The notes beneath the pieces were generated by a model. It did no database searches and had not been told where the DNA came from. It saw only the letters and a program-made list of their open reading frames with translations. This document shows positions 6,085-39,873 of a DNA stretch of 64,000 nt, piece after piece; the stretch's first letter is position 1, and each line of letters begins with the position of its first letter. Source of the DNA: Magnetospirillum sp. WYHS-4 (GTDB taxonomy: Bacteria; Pseudomonadota; Alphaproteobacteria; Rhodospirillales; GLO-3); the NCBI GenBank assembly GCA_039908345.1, contig JAMOBD010000005.1, positions 14,273 through 78,272 of the forward strand. Direction: 5' to 3'. The position numbers and the translations under genes were made by a program.

Positions 6085-6133
6085 GCCCTCCGGGCGGAGC
6101 GATGAGCAATGCCGTCAAAGGCCGGAATTGCTC
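6085..6133. repeat. Copy B (inverted orientation) of the ~48-nt palindromic repeat
   Basis: The reverse complement reads gagcaattccggcctttgacggcattgctcatcgctccgcccggagggc. It sits between the convergent hemerythrin and xthA genes and overlaps the last ~6 codons and the stop of xthA. Confidence 0.85.
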
Positions 6134-6906
6134 TCGTCGCGCAGCACGCACCAGACCGGCGTATGGTCCGAAGCCTTCTCGAGAGCCCGTGGCCTGCGGT
6201 CGATTCCCGCGGTTTCCAGACGGTCGGCGGCCTGCGGGGACAACAGAAGGTGATCGATGCGCAGCCCCTCGTCGCGAGCGAATGCCCCGGCCCGGTAGTC
6301 CCACCAGCTATGCCGCCCCGCCTCCGGATGCAGGACGCGGAAGGCGTCGATCAGTCCCAGGTGCAAAAGCCGGCGGTAGGCCGCCCGGCTTTCCTGCCGG
6401 CAGAGCGCGTCGTTGGCCCAAACGATGGGATCATGGACATCCCGGTCTTCAGGCGCCACGTTCCAGTCGGCGCCCAACACCAACGGCACCTCCTCCTCCA
6501 GCAGACCGGCCACATGGACTTTCAGCCGCTCCAGCCAACCCAGCTTGTAGGCGAACTTGTCGGTGCCCACCGGGTTGCCGTTGGGAACATAGAGCGAGGC
6601 CACCCGCAGGCCACTCGTCTCCACTTCCAGGTAGCGGGCCTGTTCGTCGGTCTCGTCACCCGGCAGGCGATCGCGCAGAACCCGCAAGGGATGGCGCGAC
6701 AAGACGGCGACGCCATTGTAGGTCCTCTGCCCCGCCACCGCTGCCCGAAAGCCCAGGGATTCCATCTCCAGGAAAGGGAAGCCGTCGGCTTCGCACTTGA
6801 TCTCCTGCAGCAGGAGCACATCCGGCGCGGCCTCCCGCAGCCAGTCCAGCAGGATGGGCAGGCGGGCCCTTACCGAATTGACGTTCCATGTGGCGATGCG
6901 AATCAT
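6115..6906 (-). CDS. xthA: Exodeoxyribonuclease III
   Basis: 263 aa. MIRIATWNVNSVRARL..LLLQEIK and the C-terminal SDHTPVW are typical of the ExoIII/EEP family. Confidence 0.9.
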   Translation of the reverse strand: MIRIATWNVNSVRARLPILLDWLREAAPDVLLLQEIKCEADGFPFLEMESLGFRAAVAGQRTYNGVAVLSRHPLRVLRDRLPGDETDEQARYLEVETSGLRVASLYVPNGNPVGTDKFAYKLGWLERLKVHVAGLLEEEVPLVLGADWNVAPEDRDVHDPIVWANDALCRQESRAAYRRLLHLGLIDAFRVLHPEAGRHSWWDYRAGAFARDEGLRIDHLLLSPQAADRLETAGIDRRPRALEKASDHTPVWCVLRDESNSGL

Positions 6907-6923
6907 GGCTCCTTCCCTAGCAC

Positions 6924-7610
6924 ATGCGCTATGATCGGACCACGATGAAGCGGCTGTTCGCGACGTTCCTGTTGGCAGTTGCCGTGGCGCCCCCCGCCGG
7001 GGCGGCGGGGACTGGGTACTGTCCTCCTTTCCTGCCCGGCCCGCCGCACGTCGAGTTCGAAGCCAACATCCCCGTCCAGCCGGCGTTCGACCATCGCCTG
7101 AGCCGAGCCGAGATCGAATCCCGCACCAGCCACGGCATGGGCCAGGGCTGGCGGGCCGGCGGCCTGACCACGGTCGCTTACGAGACCCTGGTGGCTGTCC
7201 GGGTCCAGACCCTCGGCCTGCCCGACGGCAGCCGTTGCGTCCAGGTAACGGGGGCGAACGGCCGGCTGGACGTGCGCGACCTGACGGTCCATGTGGCGCG
7301 TGAGCACCGCCCCGGCACCTGTCCCTTCGCCGCCATCCGGGAGCACGAGATGGAGCACGCGGCCATCGCCCGCCAAACCTTCCTGCACCATCTTCCGGCC
7401 TTGCGCGCGCGCCTGGAAGAGGAGGCGCGCGGCCTGCCGCCGATACGAACGGCCCAACCCGACGAGGCCGTCCAGGCAGCGGTCGACCGCCTGCTCGCCG
7501 CCTTGGCCCCGACCCTGAAAATCATGGAAACCGAAATGACCCTCGCCCATGCGGGGATCGATACGCCCGAGAGCTATCAGGCGCTCGGCCGCCGTTGCGC
7601 GATCTGGTGA
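6924..7610 (+). CDS. Secreted HExxH protein, DUF922/COG5661-like putative Zn-protease (paralog 1)
   Basis: Signal peptide MKRLFATFLLAVAVAPPAGA (alternative start at 6945). HEMEH motif. 4 Cys and a C-terminal IDTPESY..L...C block are co-linear with the next ORF. Confidence 0.55.
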   Translation: MRYDRTTMKRLFATFLLAVAVAPPAGAAGTGYCPPFLPGPPHVEFEANIPVQPAFDHRLSRAEIESRTSHGMGQGWRAGGLTTVAYETLVAVRVQTLGLPDGSRCVQVTGANGRLDVRDLTVHVAREHRPGTCPFAAIREHEMEHAAIARQTFLHHLPALRARLEEEARGLPPIRTAQPDEAVQAAVDRLLAALAPTLKIMETEMTLAHAGIDTPESYQALGRRCAIW

Positions 7611-31505: not shown

Positions 31506-32546
31506 TCAGCCGGCCACCGGTGCCCAGAGAACCTCGTCGAGACTCTCCGCTCCGCATGCCAGCATGACCAGGCGATCGACTCCCAGAGCAATGCCGGCAC
31601 TTTCCGGCATCCCCCAGGCCAGGGCCGCCAGAAAATCCTCGTCGATGGGATAGCGGACGCCGTAAAGGCCCTCCTTCCTGTCCATGTCGGCGACGAAGCG
31701 GCATCGCTGTTGGGCCGCATCAGTCAGTTCGCCGAAGGCATTGGCCAGTTCCAGCCCCGCCACATACAGCTCGAAGCGTTCCGCCAGACGTGGGTCGTCC
31801 GGCTTGGGCCGCGACAGGGCAGCCATGGAAATCGGATAATCGTAGAGCAGGGTCGGCACGCCGTTCCCCAGATGGGGTTCGATGCGGTCCAGGAAGATGC
31901 GGAAGAACAGGTCTTCCCAAGTGTCCGTCGCGCCGGGTGCGATATCCAGGCGCCGCGCCTCGGCGGCCAGCAAGGCGGGAGCGGGAGATTCGGCGGGCCG
32001 CGCGGTGGCGAGCAGGTCGATTCCGCAGTACTCGCGGAAGGCATCGGCCACCGATTGGCGCCGCCAGGGACGGAAGGGATCGCAGATCGCATCGCCGCGG
32101 CGGAACTCCCGCGCTCCGGTCGCCTCTGCCACCGCCCGCAGCAGACCCTCGCAGTCGTCCATCAGGTCCGTATAGGCGGCCCCCGCCCGGTACCATTCGA
32201 GCATGACGAATTCAGGATGGTGCGTCGCGGAACGCTCCCCATTGCGGAAGCAGCGCGCCATCTGGAACAGGCGCGGCATCCCGGCCACCAGCAGCTTCTT
32301 CATGGCGAACTCGGGAGAGGTATGCAGCCAAAGCTCCGCCACATCGCCCGTGAAGGGCTCTTCCAGACGGGTGGAGAAGGCCTTGAGATGCGGCTCCAGA
32401 CCCGGCGAGACCTGCAGGCAAGGGGTTTCGACTTCCAGGAAATCGCGCTCCTCGAAGAAGCGGCGGATCGCCGCGACCGCCCGGCCGCGCCGGATCAGAT
32501 TGGCGCGCCGGGCGGCGAAGGCTTCCGGGTGCCACCAGCGCCGCAT
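31506..32546 (-). CDS. epmA: EF-P lysine-34 (R)-beta-lysine ligase (GenX/PoxA)
   Basis: A class-II LysRS-like catalytic core without an anticodon domain (FLEVETP, FRNGE.S..H.PEF.MLEWY, GIALGVDRLVML). Start taken at MRRWWHPE (32546). Confidence 0.85.
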   Translation of the reverse strand: MRRWWHPEAFAARRANLIRRGRAVAAIRRFFEERDFLEVETPCLQVSPGLEPHLKAFSTRLEEPFTGDVAELWLHTSPEFAMKKLLVAGMPRLFQMARCFRNGERSATHHPEFVMLEWYRAGAAYTDLMDDCEGLLRAVAEATGAREFRRGDAICDPFRPWRRQSVADAFREYCGIDLLATARPAESPAPALLAAEARRLDIAPGATDTWEDLFFRIFLDRIEPHLGNGVPTLLYDYPISMAALSRPKPDDPRLAERFELYVAGLELANAFGELTDAAQQRCRFVADMDRKEGLYGVRYPIDEDFLAALAWGMPESAGIALGVDRLVMLACGAESLDEVLWAPVAG

Positions 32547-32578
32547 GCCGTCTCCCCCTTGACGGGGGACCGCCCCCC

Positions 32579-33559
32579 GTGCTGCACCATGGGACCATGA
32601 CCGCATCGTTCCGGCAAGCCCCCTTCCCGGCCCGCATCGCTCCCGAATATCGGGCGCTGATGGGTGACGCCCCCAACGACCCCCTGGCCCGCCAAGTCGT
32701 CCCCTCGCCCGAGGAACTGGCACCGCAGCCGGAAGATCGCATCGATCCCATCGGCGATACCGCCCACTCGCCCTTGGAGGGCTTGGTCCACCGTCATCCC
32801 GACCGGGTCCTGCTCAAGCCCACGCTGGCCTGCCCGATTCACTGCCGATTCTGCTTCCGCCGCGACCAGGTGGGACGGGGCGGGACGCTCAAGCCGGCGG
32901 CCCTGGCCGCCGCGCTGGATTACATCCGCGTCCATCCGGAGATTCGCGAGGTCATCCTGACCGGCGGCGATCCCCTCATGCTTTCGCCGGCACGGCTGGA
33001 GAGATTGACCCGCGATCTGAGCATGATCGACCACCTGAAGTGGCTTCGCGTCCACAGCCGGGTGCCCGTCGCCATGCCGTCGCGCATCGCGGCGGCGGCA
33101 GTGCGTGCGTTGAAGGCCGGACGGCTGGCGACTTGGGTGGCCGTGCACTGCAACCACCCCCGCGAGCTTTCTCCTGCCGCCCTTGCCGCCCTGGGACGCC
33201 TGGCCGATGCCGGCATCCCCCTGGTTTCCCAGACCGTGCTGCTGAAGGGGGTGAACGACGACGTCGCGGTCCTGGCCGAGTTGATGGAGTCCCTGTTGGC
33301 GGCGCGAGTGAAGCCCTACTACCTGCATCACGGCGACTTGGTGCCCGGTGCCGCCCATTTCCGGGTATCTCTGCCCGAGGGGATTGCCCTGGCCGCCGAG
33401 TTACGGCGGAGGGTCTCGGGCCTGGCTCTGCCAACCTATGTGCTCGACATCCCCGGCGGTTTCGGCAAGGTCCCGGTCGGTCCCTCCTACCTGGAGGATG
33501 GCGGAGCCGCGGTGCTCGATCCGCAAGGACGGCGACACGCCTATCCTGTGGAATCTTGA
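32579..33559 (+). CDS. epmB: Lysine 2,3-aminomutase-like radical SAM enzyme (EF-P beta-lysylation)
   Basis: CPIHCRFCFRR radical-SAM motif and ILTGGDPL. Divergent from epmA. GTG 32579 or ATG 32597 could be the start. Confidence 0.85.
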   Translation: MLHHGTMTASFRQAPFPARIAPEYRALMGDAPNDPLARQVVPSPEELAPQPEDRIDPIGDTAHSPLEGLVHRHPDRVLLKPTLACPIHCRFCFRRDQVGRGGTLKPAALAAALDYIRVHPEIREVILTGGDPLMLSPARLERLTRDLSMIDHLKWLRVHSRVPVAMPSRIAAAAVRALKAGRLATWVAVHCNHPRELSPAALAALGRLADAGIPLVSQTVLLKGVNDDVAVLAELMESLLAARVKPYYLHHGDLVPGAAHFRVSLPEGIALAAELRRRVSGLALPTYVLDIPGGFGKVPVGPSYLEDGGAAVLDPQGRRHAYPVES

Positions 33560-33634
33560 CCCCGGCCAAGTCGGAATCGCCGATCCGGTGTAGACTTCGG
33601 TGAAAATCGTCCAACGAGGATGGGAGAAGCCACG

Positions 33635-33994
33635 ATGCGCGAATTCGACCTGGATATCGGCCTGGCCTGCGAAATGGTCCGCGTGCTGGGAGCCGCCGGG
33701 ATGGAGGACAAGGAGCAGGTCAAGACGCCGGAGGCGGCCGTCAAGGTGCTGCGCGAGCGGGCCCGCCCGGCGATCAGCGCCGAATACGGAGTCACCGAGC
33801 AACATGCCGTCGAATCGCTGGCCCTGCAGATCTTCTTTTCCGTCTTCTGGGGCGAGAAGCTGGACCTGCACTGTGCCGAGGGCGGCAAGGTGCTGGCGGC
33901 GACCATCGAAAGCCACCATTGCACGGAGACCCCCTGCTGCGGCCCCCTGCCCGTCTGGAAGGACCTGGCCTTCCCTCATGCCCATCACAACTGA
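33635..33994 (+). CDS. Hypothetical protein with a His/Cys-rich C-terminus
   Basis: 119 aa from MREFDLD. Third codon positions are strongly G/C by inspection. GGGAGAAG lies upstream. Tail HCAEGG...HHCTETPCCGPLPVW..FPHAHHN. I did not recognise a family. Confidence 0.5.
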   Translation: MREFDLDIGLACEMVRVLGAAGMEDKEQVKTPEAAVKVLRERARPAISAEYGVTEQHAVESLALQIFFSVFWGEKLDLHCAEGGKVLAATIESHHCTETPCCGPLPVWKDLAFPHAHHN

Positions 33995-34013
33995 TCGCCG
34001 GGCTCCGACGGGA

Positions 34014-34400
34014 TCAGACGAACAGCGTATTCCCCCCCGGCGGGCAGCCGTTGAGAAAGGTGACCACGCCGCCGATTTCGATGGGCAGGTCGTCGCGCAG
34101 TTCGCTCCGGTCCATGCCGATGGCCTTCAGGCCCATCTCGCAGACCAGAAAGCCGACCCCCATGGCCCGGCAGGCCTCCAGTAGTTCCTCGAAGGCGGCG
34201 ATGCCCTTGGCGCGACAGGCGGCGTCGAAATCGGCCCACGAAGCGGCGCGGCTTAACCGCCGACAGGCCTCCATGGTAAAGAACAGGGTCACCGGGATGT
34301 CGATGGCCGCCGCGCCCGAAGCCAGCACCAGGGCGTAGTGGACCTTTTCCGCTTCGCCCGAGAAGACCACCAAGCTAAGCTTTTCCGGCCGGTCAGACAT
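34014..34400 (-). CDS. DsrE/DsrF-like sulfur-relay family protein (COG2210-like)
   Basis: 128 aa. KLSLVVFSGEAEKVHYALVLASGAAA..VTLFFTMEA and FLVCEMG are typical of the DsrE-like fold. It overlaps the moeB stop by 8 nt. Confidence 0.65.
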   Translation of the reverse strand: MSDRPEKLSLVVFSGEAEKVHYALVLASGAAAIDIPVTLFFTMEACRRLSRAASWADFDAACRAKGIAAFEELLEACRAMGVGFLVCEMGLKAIGMDRSELRDDLPIEIGGVVTFLNGCPPGGNTLFV

Positions 34401-35187
34401 GGACCGAGAGGTCCCGGATGGTCGGATGCTCGCCGCAGAGCGGGCAGCCCGGATCGCGCTTGAGCCGGATCTTGCGGAAGGTGCCGCCCAGGCCGTCGTG
34501 CATCAAGAGCCAGCCCGCCATCGTGGAGCCGATGCCCAGCAGCTCCTTCAATATCTCGGTGGCCTGCAGGGAGCCGATCACCCCGCACATGGCCCCCAGC
34601 ACCCCGGCTTCGGCGCAGGACGGAATCTGGCCGGGCGGCGGCGGCTCGCGATAGAGGCAGCGGTAGCAGGGCCGGTTCTCGCCCGGTTCGTGGGCCTTGA
34701 AGGTGGCGACCTGGCCGTCGAAGCGCAGGATGGCGCCCGAAACCAGGGTCTTCCGGCCGAAATAGCAGGCGTCGTTGATCAGGAAGCGGGTCTTGAAGTT
34801 GTCGCTGCCGTCGGCCACCAGGTCGAACCCGGAAAAGACTTCGGCTGCATTGGCGGCGGTCAGGCGCTCCGGGAAGGCGATCAGCTTCACGTCCGGATTG
34901 ATCGCCGCCAGGGAGATGCGCGCACTTTCCACCTTGGCCATGCCGACCCGGTCGGTGGCGTGGACGATCTGGCGCTGCAGATTGGACAGGTCGACGGTAT
35001 CGTGGTCGATCACCCCGAGGGTTCCCACCCCGGCCGCCGCCAAATAGAGCAGCAAGGGAGACCCCAGGCCGCCCGCCCCGACCACCAGGACCCGCGCCGC
35101 CAGAAGCGTCGCCTGCCCCTGGCCCCCCACTTCCCGGAGCAGGATGTGGCGGGCATAGCGGCGGACTTGGCTGTCGCTGAAGTCCAT
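34393..35187 (-). CDS. moeB: ThiF/MoeB-family adenylyltransferase (no rhodanese domain)
   Basis: RYARHILL..VGGQGQ, VVGAGGLGS and two CxxC pairs (CYRC, CPLC). Confidence 0.85.
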   Translation of the reverse strand: MDFSDSQVRRYARHILLREVGGQGQATLLAARVLVVGAGGLGSPLLLYLAAAGVGTLGVIDHDTVDLSNLQRQIVHATDRVGMAKVESARISLAAINPDVKLIAFPERLTAANAAEVFSGFDLVADGSDNFKTRFLINDACYFGRKTLVSGAILRFDGQVATFKAHEPGENRPCYRCLYREPPPPGQIPSCAEAGVLGAMCGVIGSLQATEILKELLGIGSTMAGWLLMHDGLGGTFRKIRLKRDPGCPLCGEHPTIRDLSVHV

Positions 35188-35190
35188 GGA

Positions 35191-36183
35191 TCAGTCGAGG
35201 CCGAGGTTGTCGAACAGCGCCGTGGACAGATAGCGTTCGGCGAAGGAAGGCAGGATGACCACGATGGTCTTGCCCGCCATCGCGGGACGGTCGCCGATCT
35301 CGAGCGCCGCCGCCAGCGCCGCGCCGGACGAGATGCCGACCGGAATGCCTTCCAGCCGCGCCACCTTGCGCGCCGTGGCGAAGGCGGTCTCGTTGCCGAT
35401 CTTGACCACCTCGTCCACGTACTTGGTGTCCAGCACGCCGGGGACGAATCCGGCGCCGATGCCCTGGATCTTGTGGGGGCCCGGCACGCCGCCCGACAGC
35501 ACGGCGCTGTCTTCCGGTTCCACCGCCACCATCATGACCTTGGGGTTGCGGGGCTTGAGGCCCAGGGCGATGCCGGTGAGCGTGCCGCCCGTGCCGACGC
35601 CGCTGATGACCGCATCGACCTTGCCGCCGGTGTCGATCCAGATTTCCTCGGCCGTGGTGATCTTGTGGATCGCCGGGTTGGCCGGGTTCTCGAACTGCTG
35701 CAGCACGTGGGCACCGGGGATTTCCTTGGCCAATTCTTCGGCACGCGCCACGGCGCCGGCCATGCCGCGGGCGGCCGGGGTCAGTTCGATGCGGGCGCCC
35801 AGCAAGGCCAGCATCTTGCGCCGTTCCACCGACATGCTTTCCGGCATGGTGAGGATCAGCGGGTAGCCGCGCGCCGCGCAGACGAAGGCCAGCGCGATGC
35901 CGGTATTGCCCGATGTCGGCTCGATCAGGGTGGCGCCCGGCTTGATGAGGCCCTGTTGCTCGGCCGCCTCGATCATGGCGAAGCCGATACGGTCCTTCAC
36001 CGAATGAAGCGGATTGAAGAACTCGCACTTGGCGAGGATCTCGGCCTTGCAGCCGGCCTCCCGGGCGAAACGCCCCAGGCGGATCAGCGGCGTGGCGCCC
36101 ACCGTGTCGACGATGCTGTCGTAGACGCGGCCGCGGGCCAGGGGCGGAACCGAGAAATTGGGGGAAGCAGTATTCTTGCTCAT
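35191..36183 (-). CDS. cysK: Cysteine synthase (O-acetylserine sulfhydrylase)
   Basis: PLP lysine in [21 protein letters not shown], and [10 protein letters not shown]. Confidence 0.9.
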
Positions 36184-36205
36184 GGCGGCGACGATCCCCT
36201 AAAGG

Positions 36206-36661
36206 TCAAATGGAAAAATCGAGATTCTTGCGGCCTTCGCTGACGATGCCGGCCTCGTTGGCCTTGAGGCAGAGATCGTCGATGGAAATGGCGTCCAGGC
36301 GGCGGATCACTTCGTCCTGCAACTCCATCCAAAGCGGACGCACCACCAAGCGCCCCAGGTCGGAACCGGCCGGATCCTCGATGGGGTTGTCGGCGGTCTC
36401 CATCTTGCGCACCACCCGGACCACGTCCCCGACCGAAATGCGGCGGCGTTCGCGCGCCAGGCGGTAGCCGCCGCGCGGTCCCCGCACCCCGATCAGGATG
36501 CCTTGGCGCACCAGTTGCTGGAGCGCCTGTTCCAGGTAGCGCCGGGGAATACCCTGCCGGCGGGTGATCTCGCGGCTCTGCACCGGCTCGGCGCCGGCAT
36601 GGTAGGCGATGTCCAGCACCGCCTCGATGGCGAACAGCATCTTCTTCGACAAGCGCAGCAT
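36206..36661 (-). CDS. Rrf2-family transcriptional regulator lacking the Fe-S ligand cysteines (CymR-like)
   Basis: MLRLSKKMLFAIEAVLDIAY winged-helix N-terminus. It has only one Cys, so no CX5-6CX5-6C cluster motif. Located 22 nt upstream of cysK. Confidence 0.8.
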   Translation of the reverse strand: MLRLSKKMLFAIEAVLDIAYHAGAEPVQSREITRRQGIPRRYLEQALQQLVRQGILIGVRGPRGGYRLARERRRISVGDVVRVVRKMETADNPIEDPAGSDLGRLVVRPLWMELQDEVIRRLDAISIDDLCLKANEAGIVSEGRKNLDFSI

Positions 36662-36665
36662 GGCC

Positions 36666-37130
36666 TCAATCTCCCGTTGTCTGCACTCCCGTGGAACCGA
36701 AACCTCCGGTCCCGCGTTCGGTTTCGGGCAGGGACTCGCTCTCCGCCCACTGAATGGATAAGACTGGCGCCACCACGAGCTGGGCGATGCGCATGCCGCG
36801 TTCGACGCGGAAGGGCACCTTGCCGTGGTTGACCAGGATGACTCCGATCTCGCCCCGGTAGTCGGCGTCGATGGTGCCGGGGCTGTTGAGCACCGCGACC
36901 CCGTGCTTGGCGGCCAAGCCCGAACGCGAGCGGACCTGGGCCTCGTAACCTTCGGGCAGGGCGATGGCGATGCCGGTGGGGATGACGGCGCGCACGCGCG
37001 GCTCCAGCAGGACCGCCTGGGGCACGGCGGCCAGCAGGTCGACCCCGGCGCTCAAGGGCGTCGCATGGGAAGGCAGCGGCAGGTCCTGCGCATGGGCAAG
37101 GCGGGTGACGGCGACGGACAGGGTCTTCAC
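36666..37130 (-). CDS. dut: dUTP diphosphatase
   Basis: SAGVDL, RSRSGLA, and [10 protein letters not shown]. The GTG start at 37130 overlaps the coaBC stop (GTGA). Confidence 0.9.
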
Positions 37131-38335
37131 GACACGGCCTCCAGGGCATCGGCGATGCGTTCGGCCAACCGTTCCGCGACCTGTTCCTTGAGCTGGCGAG
37201 GCCAGTCCTCGCAGCCCTGGGCCGTCACCAGATGCACGGCATTCTCCGCTCCGCCGAAAGTGCCGGCGGCCGGGGAGACGTCGTTGGCGACGATCCAGTC
37301 GCAGCCCTTGGCGGCGCGCTTCGCGGCCGCGTTGGCAACCACGGATTCGGTCTCGGCGGCAAAGCCCACCACCAAGCGCGGCCGGCGGTTGCCGGCACCC
37401 GCCAGCATCGCCAGGATGTCGGGGTTGGCGACGAGCGACAGAGTGGGCGGAGCCTTGCCGGCCTGCTTTTTCAGCTTGCCCGGCGCCACTTCGGCGGCGC
37501 GCCAGTCGGCGACCGCGGCGGCGCAGACGGCCACGTCGGCGGGCAAGGCGGATTCGCAGGCAGCCAGCATCTCGCGGGCCGATTCCACATGGACTACGGC
37601 CACGCCGGCCGGATCGGGCAGGGCGGTCGGACCGGAAACCAGGACGGTGTCCGCCCCCAGGCGGGCAAGGGCGCCGGCGATGGCATGGCCCTGGCGGCCC
37701 GACGACCGGTTGCCGATGAAGCGCACGGGGTCCAGGGCCTCGAAGGTGGGGCCGCTGGTCACCAGGGCCCTGCGGCCCCTGAGCCGTCCGGCCCGGCGGA
37801 AGACATCGGCGACGGCCTCGGCGATCTCCGAAGGCTCGGCCATGCGGCCCTCGCCGGCTTCCCCGCAGGCGGTCTCCCCCGTGGCGGGGCCGATGCGGCG
37901 CACGCCCCGCCCTTCCAGAATCGCCCAGTTGGCGCGGGTGGCGGGATGGTCCCACATGGCGGGGTTCATGGCGGGGCAGACAAGAACGGGCGCCCGCGTG
38001 GCCAGCAAGACGGTCGAGGCCAGATCGTCGGCCAGCCCGGCGGCCATCTTGGCCAGCAGATTCGCGGTGGCGGGGGCGATCAGAACCAGATCGGCTTCCC
38101 GCGCCAAGCGGATGTGGCCCATTTCCTGTTCGTCCGTCAGGGAAAACAGGTCGCGGTAGACCTTTGCGCCGCTTACCGTGCCCAGGGCCAAGGGCGCCAC
38201 GAACTCGGCTGCCGCGGCCGTCAAGACGCATGTCACCCGAGCCCCCCGCTCGCGCAGGCGCCGCACCAGGTCGGGAGCCTTATAGGCGGCGATCCCCCCT
38301 GAAACGATCAAAAGAATCTTATTGCCTTCGCACAC
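37127..38335 (-). CDS. coaBC: Bifunctional phosphopantothenoylcysteine decarboxylase / phosphopantothenate-cysteine ligase
   Basis: [21 protein letters not shown] and VTSGPT. The ORF is open to 38386, but an AT-rich 5' part suggests a GTG start near 38335, so the start is uncertain. Confidence 0.85.
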
Positions 38336-38455
38336 GGGGCTTCTCGAATGTGATTTACGTACATGCACTGTGTTTAGGTAAAACACGGCGCACGCATGTA
38401 CACAAGCCTTTTTTGCGTGACGATTAGGGGAAATTGATGTGGGGACGAAAATGCT

Positions 38456-39061
38456 CTAAAACTCGATCCCGGGCTGGGCCTTGATGCCCTCGCGGAAGGG
38501 GTGCTTGACCAGGGTCATTTCGGTGACGAGGTCTGCGGCGGCGATCAGTTCCTCCTTCGCGCCGCGTCCCGTCGCCACCACGTGGGTGGCCGCAGGCCGG
38601 GCGACGAGGACGGCCAGCACTTCGGCCAAGTCCAGGTAGCCGTAGCGTAGCGCGACGTTGATCTCGTCCAGGATCACCAGGCGGAAGGCGGGATCGGCGA
38701 TCATCGCCGCGGCTTCCTCCCAGGCCCGCCGGGTGGCGGCGATATCGCGCTCCTTGTCCTGGGTTTCCCAGGTGAAGCCCTCGCCCAGCGCCCGGACCGC
38801 GACCTGATCGCCGAAAGCCGCCAAGGCCTTGCGTTCGGCCGAATCGCGGGCGCCTTTGATGAACTGCACGAGGCCTACCTTGAAGCCGTGGCCCAAGGCA
38901 CGGAGCGCCATGCCGAGCGCCGCCGTGGTCTTGCCCTTGCCGGGCCCGGTATGGACGATCAGCAGACCCTTTTCCCGATCGATGCGGGCCATCAGGCGTT
39001 CGCGTGCCGCCTTCTTGCGGGCCATCTTCCGGCGATGGGGATCGGGGGCGCTTTCGGTCAT
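38456..39061 (-). CDS. cobO: Cob(I)yrinic acid a,c-diamide adenosyltransferase
   Basis: P-loop HTGPGKGKTTAALG, LVILDE and VATGRGA. Located 32 nt downstream of sdhB. Confidence 0.85.
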   Translation of the reverse strand: MTESAPDPHRRKMARKKAARERLMARIDREKGLLIVHTGPGKGKTTAALGMALRALGHGFKVGLVQFIKGARDSAERKALAAFGDQVAVRALGEGFTWETQDKERDIAATRRAWEEAAAMIADPAFRLVILDEINVALRYGYLDLAEVLAVLVARPAATHVVATGRGAKEELIAAADLVTEMTLVKHPFREGIKAQPGIEF

Positions 39062-39093
39062 GGCGCGACCATGCCCGGAAGCGAGCCCGCCGT

Positions 39094-39873
39094 CTACCTC
39101 TGGCGTCGCACCAGGGCCGACTTGATTTCGGCGATCGCCTTGCCTGGGTTGAGCCCCTTGGGACAGGTGTTGGTGCAGTTCATGATCGTATGGCAGCGAT
39201 AAAGCCGGAACGGATCGTCCAGGTCGTCCAGGCGGTGGCCGGTCGCCTCGTCGCGGGAATCCGCGATCCAGCGGTAGGCCTGCAACAGGATGGCCGGCCC
39301 CAGGTAGCCGTTCTCGCCGTTCCACCAGTAGCTGGGGCAACTGGTCTGGCAGCAGAAGCAGAGGATGCATTCCCAGAGACCGTCCAGCATCGCCCGTTCG
39401 TCGGGCGTCTGCAGCCGCTCGCCGCCCGGCACCGGCGATTCCGCCTGCAGCCAGGGCTTGATGGACCGCAACTGGGCATAGGGAACCGACAGGTCGGGCA
39501 CCAAGTCCTTGACGACCGGCATGTGGGGCAGCGGATAGATCTTCACGTCGCCCTCGATCTCGGCGATGGGCTTGGTGCAGGCCAGCGTGTTGGTGCCGTC
39601 GATGTTGAAGGCGCAGGACCCGCAGACCCCTTCGCGGCAGGACCGCCGGAAGGTGAGCGTGGGGTCGATCTCGTTCTTGATCTTGATAAGCGCGTCCAGA
39701 ACCATCGGCCCGCAGGAATCGAGATCGATATGGAAGGTGTCCAGGCGCGGGTTATGGCCGCTGTCGGGATCGAAGCGGTAGATCAGGAACTTCCGGACCC
39801 GGCCACCGACCGGAATGGGATGCACCTTGCCCGGAATGATCCTGGAATTGGTGGGGAGCGTGAATTCGACCAT
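39094..39873 (-). CDS. sdhB: Succinate dehydrogenase iron-sulfur subunit
   Basis: [21 protein letters not shown] and [13 protein letters not shown] clusters. Confidence 0.95.

Follow-up and report, generated by a model that had tools for sequence, protein, structure and literature searches.

In the CymR–CysK pair of the Firmicutes Bacillus subtilis and Staphylococcus aureus, an Rrf2-family repressor without Fe–S ligands senses metabolism by means of a C-terminal tail that enters the active site of CysK. The tail of S. aureus CymR (...YMFYI) docks in the active site of SaCysK (Kd 25 nM), and insertion of a C-terminal tail into CysK in this manner is common to S. aureus CymR and CysE. In B. subtilis cymR is located upstream of the desulfurase gene yrvO and of mnmA. 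A related arrangement is found in Mycobacterium tuberculosis, where the DFSI tail of the serine acetyltransferase CysE has been crystallised as a peptide in the active site of CysK1 (PDB 2Q3C). On the side of sulfur transfer, the route by which sulfur reaches the acyl-adenylates of MoaD and ThiS is clear only for E1-like enzymes that bear a rhodanese domain, as do MoeZ/MoeBR, MOCS3 and Uba4; the direct sulfur donor for stand-alone MoeB/ThiF enzymes is still debated, E. coli included. Rhodanese-less E1 enzymes have been described as always accompanied by a separate SirA/TusA protein (Iyer, Burroughs and Aravind 2006, Table 1 row 4e; PMC1779556), in operons that encode TusA/SirA, ThiS/MoaD-like proteins, a JAB peptidase and sulfate-assimilation genes, and DsrE goes unmentioned in that survey. 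Proteins of the DsrE fold are known from relays that include DsrEFH, TusBCD, DsrE3A/B/C with TusA, and DsrE2B (SSO1126, PDB 2QS7).

The locus that we report here lies in a 64-kb window (the whole stretch of DNA analysed) from the alphaproteobacterium Magnetospirillum sp. WYHS-4, and forms a compact array with the gene order coaBC-dut-rrf2-cysK-moeB-dsrE-like, the four-gene part of which consists of two coupled pairs (Table 1). The initial annotation had described four minus-strand genes with junctions of 22, 3 and −8 nt. Re-reading the open reading frames, coordinates and junctions gave a match throughout, with 22 nt between rrf2 and cysK, 3 nt between cysK and moeB, and an 8-nt overlap of moeB with the dsrE-like gene that indicates probable translational coupling. 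The upstream extension of the array by dut and coaBC had not been part of that description. The dut stop is separated from the rrf2 start by 4 nt and dut is itself overlapped by coaBC; in the window, dut, rrf2 and cysK are spaced too tightly for a promoter between them. The coaBC gene is colinear with the remaining array genes in most related loci and is probably co-transcribed with them.

Table 1. Features of the array in the window (positions within the 64-kb stretch)
Feature	Position	Strand	Remarks
coaBC (phosphopantothenoylcysteine synthetase/decarboxylase)	37127..38386	-	Pfam Flavoprotein and DFP; first gene of the array
dut (dUTPase)	36666..37130	-	Pfam dUTPase, 110 bits
rrf2	36206..36661	-	151 aa; PF02082, 101 bits; without Fe–S ligand cysteines
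Codons for D-F-S-I, C-terminal tetrapeptide of Rrf2	36209..36220	-	Predicted CysK active-site docking tail
cysK (O-acetylserine sulfhydrylase A)	35191..36183	-	330 aa; TIGR01139, 425 bits
moeB (ThiF/MoeB-type adenylyltransferase without rhodanese domain)	34393..35187	-	264 aa; PF00899, NF004281
Overlap of moeB stop and dsrE-like start, 8 nt, ATGTCTGA	34393..34400	-	Read from sequence
dsrE-like (DsrE-fold protein; DrsE_2 family, DsrE2B-like)	34014..34400	-	128 aa; predicted persulfide carrier
Cys87 codon (FLVCEMG), canonical DsrE active-site cysteine	34140..34142	-	Family alignment

The gene cluster is kept intact across a whole bacterial order. Among the 91 related loci with at least 3.3 kb of upstream sequence, the full array is colinear in 80, rrf2, cysK and moeB are all present in 80, and cysK stands directly before moeB in 82. 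In 106/107 loci, at DsrE identities of 33–61%, moeB is the gene immediately before dsrE-like, and the gap between the two is also conserved (median −11 nt, range −32 to +18; 77 loci). Because of this near-universal adjacency and of the 80 loci that hold the other three genes together, the arrangement is far beyond chance, and the simple co-location of moeB with cysK that had been offered as an alternative is rejected. The moeB-dsrE pair is retained without rrf2 and/or cysK in ten loci; wherever moeB and cysK are separated the dsrE-like gene goes with moeB, and among the 107 loci there is no case of a dsrE-like gene with cysK but without moeB. A distance-matrix covariation analysis did not single out the MoeB–DsrE pair. 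In one locus (L085) a rhodanese gene adjoins the cluster.

The regulator is a clear member of the Rrf2 family (PF02082 with 101 bits against a cut-off of 30, TIGR00738 with 98.5 bits against 73.3). As first noted, it has a single cysteine (C131) and lacks the three-Cys cluster motif, and 62 of 67 orthologs share this one-Cys state. Equivalog models for the Fe–S members of the family all score below their cut-offs (IscR 84.6 bits against 207.6, NsrR 34 against 182, RirA 40 against 193), which together with the single cysteine rules out the class of IscR, NsrR and RirA. The score on the CymR equivalog (NF047409) likewise falls short (64.8 bits, cut-off 195). What the protein does share with CymR is, besides the missing Fe–S ligands, a tail that ends in aromatic-x-Ile-COOH (...LDFSI) and is thus of the Ile-ended type able to fill the active site of CysK. 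All 81 orthologs (67 from genomes and 14 from metagenomes) end in DFxI-COOH, and the 15 residues that precede it vary. The window tail DFSI is identical not to the tail of CymR but to that of CysE, in the form of the very MtbCysE peptide bound in 2Q3C, and it is carried here by a DNA-binding regulator rather than by a serine acetyltransferase. The resemblance to CymR that had been proposed at the outset is thereby strengthened. Since the protein has no Fe–S cysteines and ends in DFSI, and since S. aureus CymR docks likewise, Rrf2 and CysK would by analogy constitute a CymR-type pair of repressor and sensor enzyme. As in the CymR system the regulator has ties with cysteine metabolism as well as with a sulfur-transfer module; it differs in that the host is an alphaproteobacterium and not a member of the Firmicutes, that rrf2 is situated directly upstream of cysK itself and that the complex is here predicted from sequence. 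A search for an Rrf2 operator found nothing, and no operator shared by the two pairs.

The partner enzyme scores 425 bits on the CysK model TIGR01139 (cut-off 351) and contains the PLP lysine (SVKDR) and the TSGNT substrate loop, while the CysM models give 268 bits against cut-offs of 394–413. To judge from its sequence it is a canonical O-acetylserine CysK and not of the CysO-dependent CysM type. Its closest solved relative is MtbCysK1 (2Q3B; 400 bits, 63% identity), with which the TSGNT loop and the QQFE motif are identical in the alignment; these are the residues that grip the terminal Ile of a docked tail, and they are unchanged here.

The MoeB protein, named so by NCBI as well, matches PF00899 with 264 bits and NF004281 with 303 bits (cut-off 266), its ThiF domain spanning residues 11–249. 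It possesses the nucleotide loop and the catalytic Asp; the GxGxxG motif, the active-loop Cys and two CxxC zinc motifs are features that it has in common with MoeZ/MoeBR, MOCS3 and Uba4. In the alignment with MoeB of E. coli (1JW9), which spans residues 2–253, the E. coli protein stops at the second CxxC, whereas the window protein adds a short conserved tail, PTIxDLSxH, at the point where in Uba4 the linker to the rhodanese begins. The MoeZ-type models (NF005902 and NF006444) match the E1 part only and below cut-off, with 372 bits for NF006444 and 317 bits for MoeZ, and still score higher than TIGR02355, the model for MoeB of the E. coli type (224 bits, cut-off 376). A fusion of the MoeZ/MOCS3 type is nevertheless absent; the protein has 264 aa and the ThiF domain only, in agreement with the initial annotation, and its orthologs measure 263–284 aa. 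In contrast to the fused enzymes, the window MoeB is joined by a separate DsrE-fold protein encoded by the overlapping downstream gene.

This small protein belongs to the DsrE/DsrF/DsrH-like superfamily (PF13686 DrsE_2, 59 bits against a cut-off of 25). Its AlphaFold2 model has the DsrE fold with a pLDDT of 93.8, and the top Foldseek match is 2QS7 with a TM-score of 0.81, followed by 3MC3, 3PNX and DsrEFH. The cysteine of the FLVCEMG motif, which had drawn attention from the beginning, is C87, the only invariant column among 58 divergent family members; it opens the helix that follows the central strand, and its counterparts in alignment are the cysteine in 2QS7 and 3PNX and the first of the two in the C-X7-C motif of DsrE3A. 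It occupies the sulfur-binding position of DsrE and DsrE3. The differences from the known DsrE relays are also evident. The protein is single and small, its constant partner is an E1-like enzyme and not TusA, DsrC or TusE, the score on the DsrE2 model NF047629 is 38.5 bits (cut-off 210), and the gene is unlinked to dsr/shdr sulfur-oxidation genes, with no dsr, hdr or tusA gene in the annotated related loci. Compared with the operons of E1 and SirA/TusA, a small cysteine-bearing sulfur carrier is again encoded beside a rhodanese-less E1, but it has the DsrE fold and comes with no carrier or JAB gene. The chain ends with the final strand of the fold, which is buried in the model and terminates in F-I/V, with no Gly-Gly tail, and on this account the protein is predicted to be incapable of being adenylated like a carrier. 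The suggestion that it takes the position of a CysO/ThiS carrier therefore finds no support: it has no such tail, it tracks moeB and not cysK, and the synthase is not of the CysM type. By position and chemistry it would suit as a stand-in for the rhodanese domain, in the service of MoaD/ThiS thiocarboxylation rather than of cysteine synthesis.

We propose to read the cluster as a composite operon for sulfur economy with two protein pairs, Rrf2–CysK and MoeB–DsrE-like, and assign to this reading a probability of about one half. In the first pair CysK would serve as co-repressor and sensor of the Rrf2 repressor: the flexible tail ...DFSI-COOH would enter the CysK active site as the CysE tail does, and O-acetylserine, which builds up when sulfide or cysteine is short, would compete for that site, release Rrf2 and de-repress the genes, moeB and dsrE presumably included. 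In the second pair MoeB would serve as the general E1-like adenylyltransferase, with MoaD and probably ThiS, both encoded elsewhere, as the proteins whose Gly-Gly C-terminus it activates, while the DsrE-like protein would be made in step with it via the overlapping stop and start codons. A cysteine desulfurase would load a persulfide on Cys87, from where the sulfur would pass to the acyl-adenylate to yield the thiocarboxylate, in what amounts to a ‘split MoeZ/MOCS3’; the DsrE-like protein would thus play the part of the fused rhodanese in MoeZ/MOCS3/Uba4 and of IscS/TusA/YnjE in E. coli. That it is the dedicated persulfide donor of the rhodanese-less MoeB, and that this step is under the control of a CysK-docking Rrf2 repressor, we put forward tentatively.

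The DsrE-like protein could instead be an accessory of MoeB, with the sulfur supplied by a desulfurase, TusA or rhodanese from elsewhere; it could be a thiol/persulfide redox partner that resolves a MoeB–carrier acyl-disulfide, shield the cysteines of MoeB or restore their activity, or act as a buffer for reactive sulfur species. The tight coupling of moeB and dsrE is equally compatible with such roles. The nearest biochemically tested relative, DsrE2B of M. cuprina, bound no sulfur compound tested and showed no interaction with TusA or DsrE3A (PMC4175335), no clear role has been assigned to A. vinosum DsrE2A, and DsrE4 relatives have been proposed to detoxify reactive sulfur species. C77, ten residues before C87 and often conserved, and an extra C-terminal Cys in 30 of 78 MoeB orthologs further hint at thiol-disulfide chemistry. 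C77, however, is not retained in the wider family, where C87 alone is invariant, and in all DsrE-family members with a demonstrated function the equivalent of C87 bears sulfane sulfur or a thiosulfonate. The fusions seen in distant relatives, moreover, are to the sulfurtransferase domains rhodanese and TusA. We therefore regard an accessory role as rather unlikely and retain the DsrE-like protein as candidate donor.

Another possibility is that the two proteins serve a different thiolation, be it of tRNA in the manner of TtuC or of a thio-metabolite, and that the housekeeping MoeB is encoded elsewhere. The target carrier is indeed not encoded nearby, and in other bacteria different pathways draw on a common ThiF/MoeB enzyme, Thermus TtuC being an example. 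Against this, the gene is embedded in a block of core housekeeping genes near the origin (mutM, ubiE-ubiB-coaBC-dut ... rpsT-dnaA), the protein passes the MoeB subfamily model and bears that name at NCBI, and every ortholog of at least 69% identity that was looked up has the same context, as expected of a single housekeeping copy; a separate thiolation pathway is thus improbable.

It is less probable still that the two pairs are neighbours without any functional or regulatory link and that the dsrE-like gene simply rides behind moeB. The pairs can occur apart, no shared operator was found, and the order of a syntenic housekeeping block can persist by inertia. But moeB and dsrE-like remain adjacent with overlapping codons down to 33% identity, and do so too in a different context in L087, a divergent alphaproteobacterium of 43% GC. 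The four-gene unit also holds when dut is lost, as in Arenibaculum, where dut is located elsewhere, and an rrf2 gene with the DFSI tail stays before moeB-dsrE when cysK is absent, in four loci with 3.3 kb or more of upstream sequence (L065, L090, L092 and L103) and likewise, with shorter upstream sequence, in L089.

Least probable of all is that MoeB and the DsrE-like protein deliver sulfur to CysK for protein-bound-sulfide cysteine synthesis, either via a CysO-like thiocarboxylate or via a protein persulfide attacking the aminoacrylate: cysK does immediately precede moeB in most loci, operons of an E1 and a cysteine synthase are known elsewhere and such genes adjoin in the CysO-CysM-MoeZ-Mec system of M. 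tuberculosis, but the synthase here is of the O-acetylserine type with an active site apparently taken by the regulator tail, the E1 has no rhodanese, the DsrE-like protein ends in a buried strand unsuited to adenylation, and the dsrE-like gene is never kept with cysK alone. CysO-type synthesis in particular is unlikely, as the ubiquitin-like carrier that was reported missing is absent on wider inspection too: no small ORF ending in GG occurs in the 64-kb window and none is conserved across 85 related loci, no ThiS/MoaD/CysO-like gene lies nearby in any locus, and the Pfam-annotated loci contain no JAB/Mec peptidase gene.

The operon is carried by cultured Thalassospira and Magnetospirillum strains, and both ideas, the docking repressor and the DsrE-type donor, are open to genetics. 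The DFxI tail would show that the CymR principle, in which a repressor senses metabolism through a tail in the CysK active site, extends beyond the Firmicutes, and here another Rrf2 lineage seems to have arrived at it through a copy of the CysE tail. A DsrE-fold protein apparently coupled in translation to MoeB across an entire order represents a concrete and testable candidate for the sulfur donor. If it does fulfil this role, it would be the first assimilatory function for the poorly understood DsrE2-like branch and would provide bacteria with a third way to sulfurate MoaD/ThiS, beside the fused rhodanese and IscS/TusA, with sulfur insertion into MoCo and thiamine tuned to the O-acetylserine/cysteine status of the cell.

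Rrf2, CysK, MoeB and a DsrE-like protein are encoded by four minus-strand ORFs at exactly the coordinates proposed in the initial annotation, and profile searches confirmed the family to which each had been assigned. The window derives from Magnetospirillum sp. WYHS-4, a MAG in which the MoeB and DsrE-like entries show 100% identity to the proteins encoded here. Read from the sequence, 22 nt separate rrf2 from cysK and 3 nt separate cysK from moeB, and moeB and the dsrE-like gene overlap by 8 nt (ATGTCTGA). The array extends further than first described; only 4 nt lie between the end of dut and rrf2, dut is itself overlapped by coaBC, and the six genes (coaBC-dut-rrf2-cysK-moeB-dsrE-like) are thus packed so tightly that there is no space for an internal promoter. 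A scan of positions 33400-39400 found no sigma-70-like promoter site and no terminator 3' of the dsrE-like gene, the terminator-like matches being limited to two of low quality at the 5' end of coaBC.

Coordinates and family assignments of the four genes in the window
Gene	Position	Strand	Assignment
rrf2	36206-36661	-	ORF; matches PF02082
cysK	35191-36183	-	TIGR01139, 425 bits (cut-off 351)
moeB	34393-35187	-	264 aa; ThiF domain only; passes MoeB subfamily model NF004281
dsrE-like	34014-34400	-	matches DrsE_2 (PF13686)

The surroundings of the array differ between genomes. Its upstream neighbours in the window are a cobO-like gene and sdhCDAB, unlike many relatives (including the related loci L081, L107 and L108) in which the operon resides within a core housekeeping block near the replication origin (mutM, ubiE, ubiB, coaBC, dut ... 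rpsT, dnaA, dnaN). On the other side, a plus-strand ORF of 124 aa (33620-33994) that scores well in coding statistics and matches no Pfam or NCBIfam family is convergent with the dsrE-like gene, the two stop codons lying 19 nt apart; it was found beside the operon in none of the related loci. The Cys- and His-rich C-terminus of its product (...HHCTETPCCGPLP...HAHHN) may bind metal. The region immediately 3' of the operon (31506-33559) contains divergent genes for an EpmA-like (class II lysyl-tRNA-synthetase-like) protein and an EpmB-like radical SAM protein of the lysine 2,3-aminomutase type, together an EF-P lysylation pair. The listed epmA and epmB ORFs overlap at their 5' ends and the true epmA start is therefore probably further in.

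Whether the gene neighbourhood is conserved, a point that the initial annotation had left to a wider survey, can be answered in the affirmative. In a pattern scan that sampled each species by a single genome, relatives of the DsrE-like protein turned up in 367 genomes, the best 80 of which belong almost exclusively to the Rhodospirillales sensu lato, including Thalassospira, Magnetovibrio and Magnetospirillum. Loci were added by protein look-ups and by a metagenome scan that started from a divergent 6-sequence subgroup, and the window proteins were mapped onto all 108 loci. Upstream sequence of 3.3 kb or more was available for 91 loci, of which 80 possess rrf2, cysK and moeB together; four have only moeB, four have rrf2 and moeB without cysK, two have cysK and moeB without rrf2, and none combines the dsrE-like gene with cysK in the absence of moeB. 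The gene immediately 5' of the dsrE-like gene is moeB in 106 of the 107 loci having any upstream sequence, and in most pairs the moeB stop overlaps the dsrE-like start (median -11 nt, range -32 to +18, n=77). The sole exception, L076 (4920-8426), carries tyrosine recombinase (XerD-like) and Sel1-repeat genes upstream of its dsrE-like gene, suggestive of a rearrangement. The four genes stay together in Arenibaculum, where dut has been relocated, and a divergent alphaproteobacterial contig (L087, 43% GC) retains the overlapping moeB-dsrE pair alone in another context. The unit hence consists of two pairs, an almost inseparable moeB-dsrE and an rrf2-cysK that usually precedes it, since the adjacency of the former is near-universal while rrf2 or cysK can be missing. 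Mirror-tree analysis of the six proteins was uninformative, with raw correlations all 0.88-0.95 and partial correlations that did not single out MoeB-DsrE (0.33). Across 61 six-gene loci the DsrE-like protein is the fastest-evolving product (mean p-distance 0.38) and CysK the slowest (0.24).

The structural model of the DsrE-like protein is of high confidence (pLDDT 93.8) and best matches SSO1126 (PDB 2QS7; TM 0.81), followed by DsrE3A (3MC3), Swol_2425 (3PNX) and DsrEFH. Cys87 within the FLVCEMG motif occupies the one column that is invariant across 58 divergent relatives; its aligned counterparts are the cysteines of 2QS7 and 3PNX and, in DsrE3A, the first cysteine of the C-X7-C motif. Clustering at 50% gives the family about 1,400 representatives, nearly all of which consist of a single domain and measure 120-160 aa. 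Two distant members of about 825 aa (P0380 and P0383) are multi-domain persulfide-handling enzymes in which a pyridine-nucleotide disulfide reductase (CoA-disulfide-reductase-like), rhodanese and TusA are followed by a C-terminal DsrE-like (DrsE_2) domain. In one metagenome contig (L085, 7466-9227) genes for a single-domain rhodanese and a pyridine-nucleotide disulfide oxidoreductase come right after the dsrE-like gene, in convergent orientation.

MoeB contains all ThiF motifs, can be aligned to E. coli MoeB from end to end and, as first noted, is devoid of a rhodanese domain. By score it is closer to the rhodanese-fused models (NF006444, 372 bits; MoeZ, 317) than to the E. coli-type model (224; cut-off 376), and it ends in a conserved PTIxDLSxH tail at the position where Uba4-type enzymes start the linker to their rhodanese domain. 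In 30 of 78 orthologs (L005, L009, L013, L014, L049, L065 and others) the protein runs past this tail into a short segment with one more cysteine (for example ...HGSTAHACG, ...GACHG, ...RACQGG), which could be a mobile thiol arm and is absent from the window MoeB and the Thalassospira proteins. MoeB selenoproteins are known from marine sources; selenocysteine read-through of moeB was rejected here, as the in-frame continuations are unrelated junk. A putative MoeB-DsrE fusion of 398 aa (P0124) was likewise discarded, being an internal duplication of the C-terminal half of MoeB on a 2.2-kb ENA contig and probably an assembly artefact. The best 150 family representatives included no fusion to MoeB, only fusions to CoADR, rhodanese and TusA.

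E1-like enzymes without rhodanese have been described as always accompanied by a SirA/TusA gene, the predicted rhodanese stand-in, in an account from which DsrE is absent (Iyer, Burroughs and Aravind, PMC1779556). The same logic appears to apply here with a DsrE-fold partner, and the simplest mechanism is that MoeB and the DsrE-like protein form a split version of MoeZ/MOCS3. The DsrE fold with its Cys87, the fusion of distant members to rhodanese and TusA, which places the fold in sulfane-sulfur transfer, the higher scores of MoeB on rhodanese-fused models, the tail at the linker site and the SirA/TusA precedent all argue for this reading, according to which the DsrE-like protein would carry a persulfide on Cys87 and pass it to the MoeB-bound acyl-adenylate of MoaD or ThiS. 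It is also possible that the DsrE-like protein is a redox or repair accessory; its nearest tested relative, M. cuprina DsrE2B, failed to bind any sulfur compound or partner in vitro. Alternatively, the moeB-dsrE pair may serve another thiolation pathway.

The initial annotation had drawn a comparison with CysO-type cysteine synthesis, with the DsrE-fold protein in the carrier position. The search for a carrier covered the entire 64-kb window, where no Gly-Gly-ended ORF of at least 45 aa in a plausible small gene and no candidate in a GC3-based gene list were found, and 85 related loci, where the five GG-ended ORFs were sporadic and non-homologous; the reported lack of a ThiS/MoaD/CysO-like gene therefore holds clade-wide. 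In Thalassospira (L018, L023 and others; about 6125-7168) an insert of about 1.2 kb with an extra gene of about 346 aa interrupts the tight cysK-moeB junction and leaves the moeB-dsrE overlap intact. The encoded protein is unrelated and not a carrier; in L048 its place is taken by an ORF on the opposite strand that exceeds 420 aa. With neither a carrier gene nor a JAB/Mec peptidase at the loci searched, and with a canonical CysK rather than CysM as the synthase, the CysO-type route is considered unlikely. Nor would the DsrE-like protein itself be adenylatable, because its C-terminus is modelled as the last beta-strand, ending F-I/V; its gene goes with moeB, never with cysK alone.

The resemblance of Rrf2 to CymR has fared better. 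Its sole cysteine is C131, and 62 of 67 orthologs likewise have one Cys, bearing out the absence of the three Fe-S cluster ligands. Judged by sequence, Rrf2 belongs to no named subfamily, since it falls below the cut-off on the IscR, NsrR, RirA and CymR equivalog models, the last of these setting it apart from CymR. All 67 genome and 14 metagenome orthologs terminate in D-F-x-I-COOH, preceded by about 15 variable residues. In S. aureus the Ile-ended C-terminal peptides of CysE and CymR enter the CysK active site; for ...YMFYI, the peptide of CymR, the Kd is 25 nM (bioRxiv 10.1101/2024.09.19.614015). The window terminus, DFSI, is the same tetrapeptide as the native tail of M. tuberculosis CysE crystallised in CysK1 (PDB 2Q3C; PMC9547175). 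MtbCysK1 is also the closest solved relative of the window CysK (400 bits, 63% identity), and the two enzymes have identical versions of the TSGNT loop and the QQFE motif by which the terminal carboxylate is held. A single-sequence AF2 run intended to judge disorder of the Rrf2 tail gave an unusable model (mean pLDDT 36). From the invariant DFxI, the shared CysE peptide, the CysK1-like CysK and the CymR precedent we infer that Rrf2 docks into CysK and acts like CymR, with the complex, operator and regulon all predicted; O-acetylserine would be the signal competing with the Rrf2 tail on CysK. By-eye inspection of the rrf2-cysK and dut-rrf2 spacers found no operator. When exact inverted repeats with arms of 5-6 nt and spacers of 0-15 nt were listed for 27 non-redundant loci, no motif was common to more than two of them, the same as in shuffled controls. 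The tailed rrf2 still precedes moeB-dsrE in loci lacking cysK, which suggests that this pair is among the genes under Rrf2 control.

Literature searches, with coverage short of all journals, found nothing relevant on DsrE-family proteins in conjunction with MoeB, adenylyltransferases or thiocarboxylates, or on an Rrf2-cysK pair in Alphaproteobacteria. Both halves of the unit are variants of known principles, namely the docking of CymR with CysK and the cooperation of an E1 with a sulfurtransferase. For MoeB enzymes that stand alone, whose sulfur donor is debated, the DsrE-like protein represents a concrete candidate donor, and the predicted Rrf2-CysK pair would extend regulation by docking of a tail into CysK beyond the Firmicutes.
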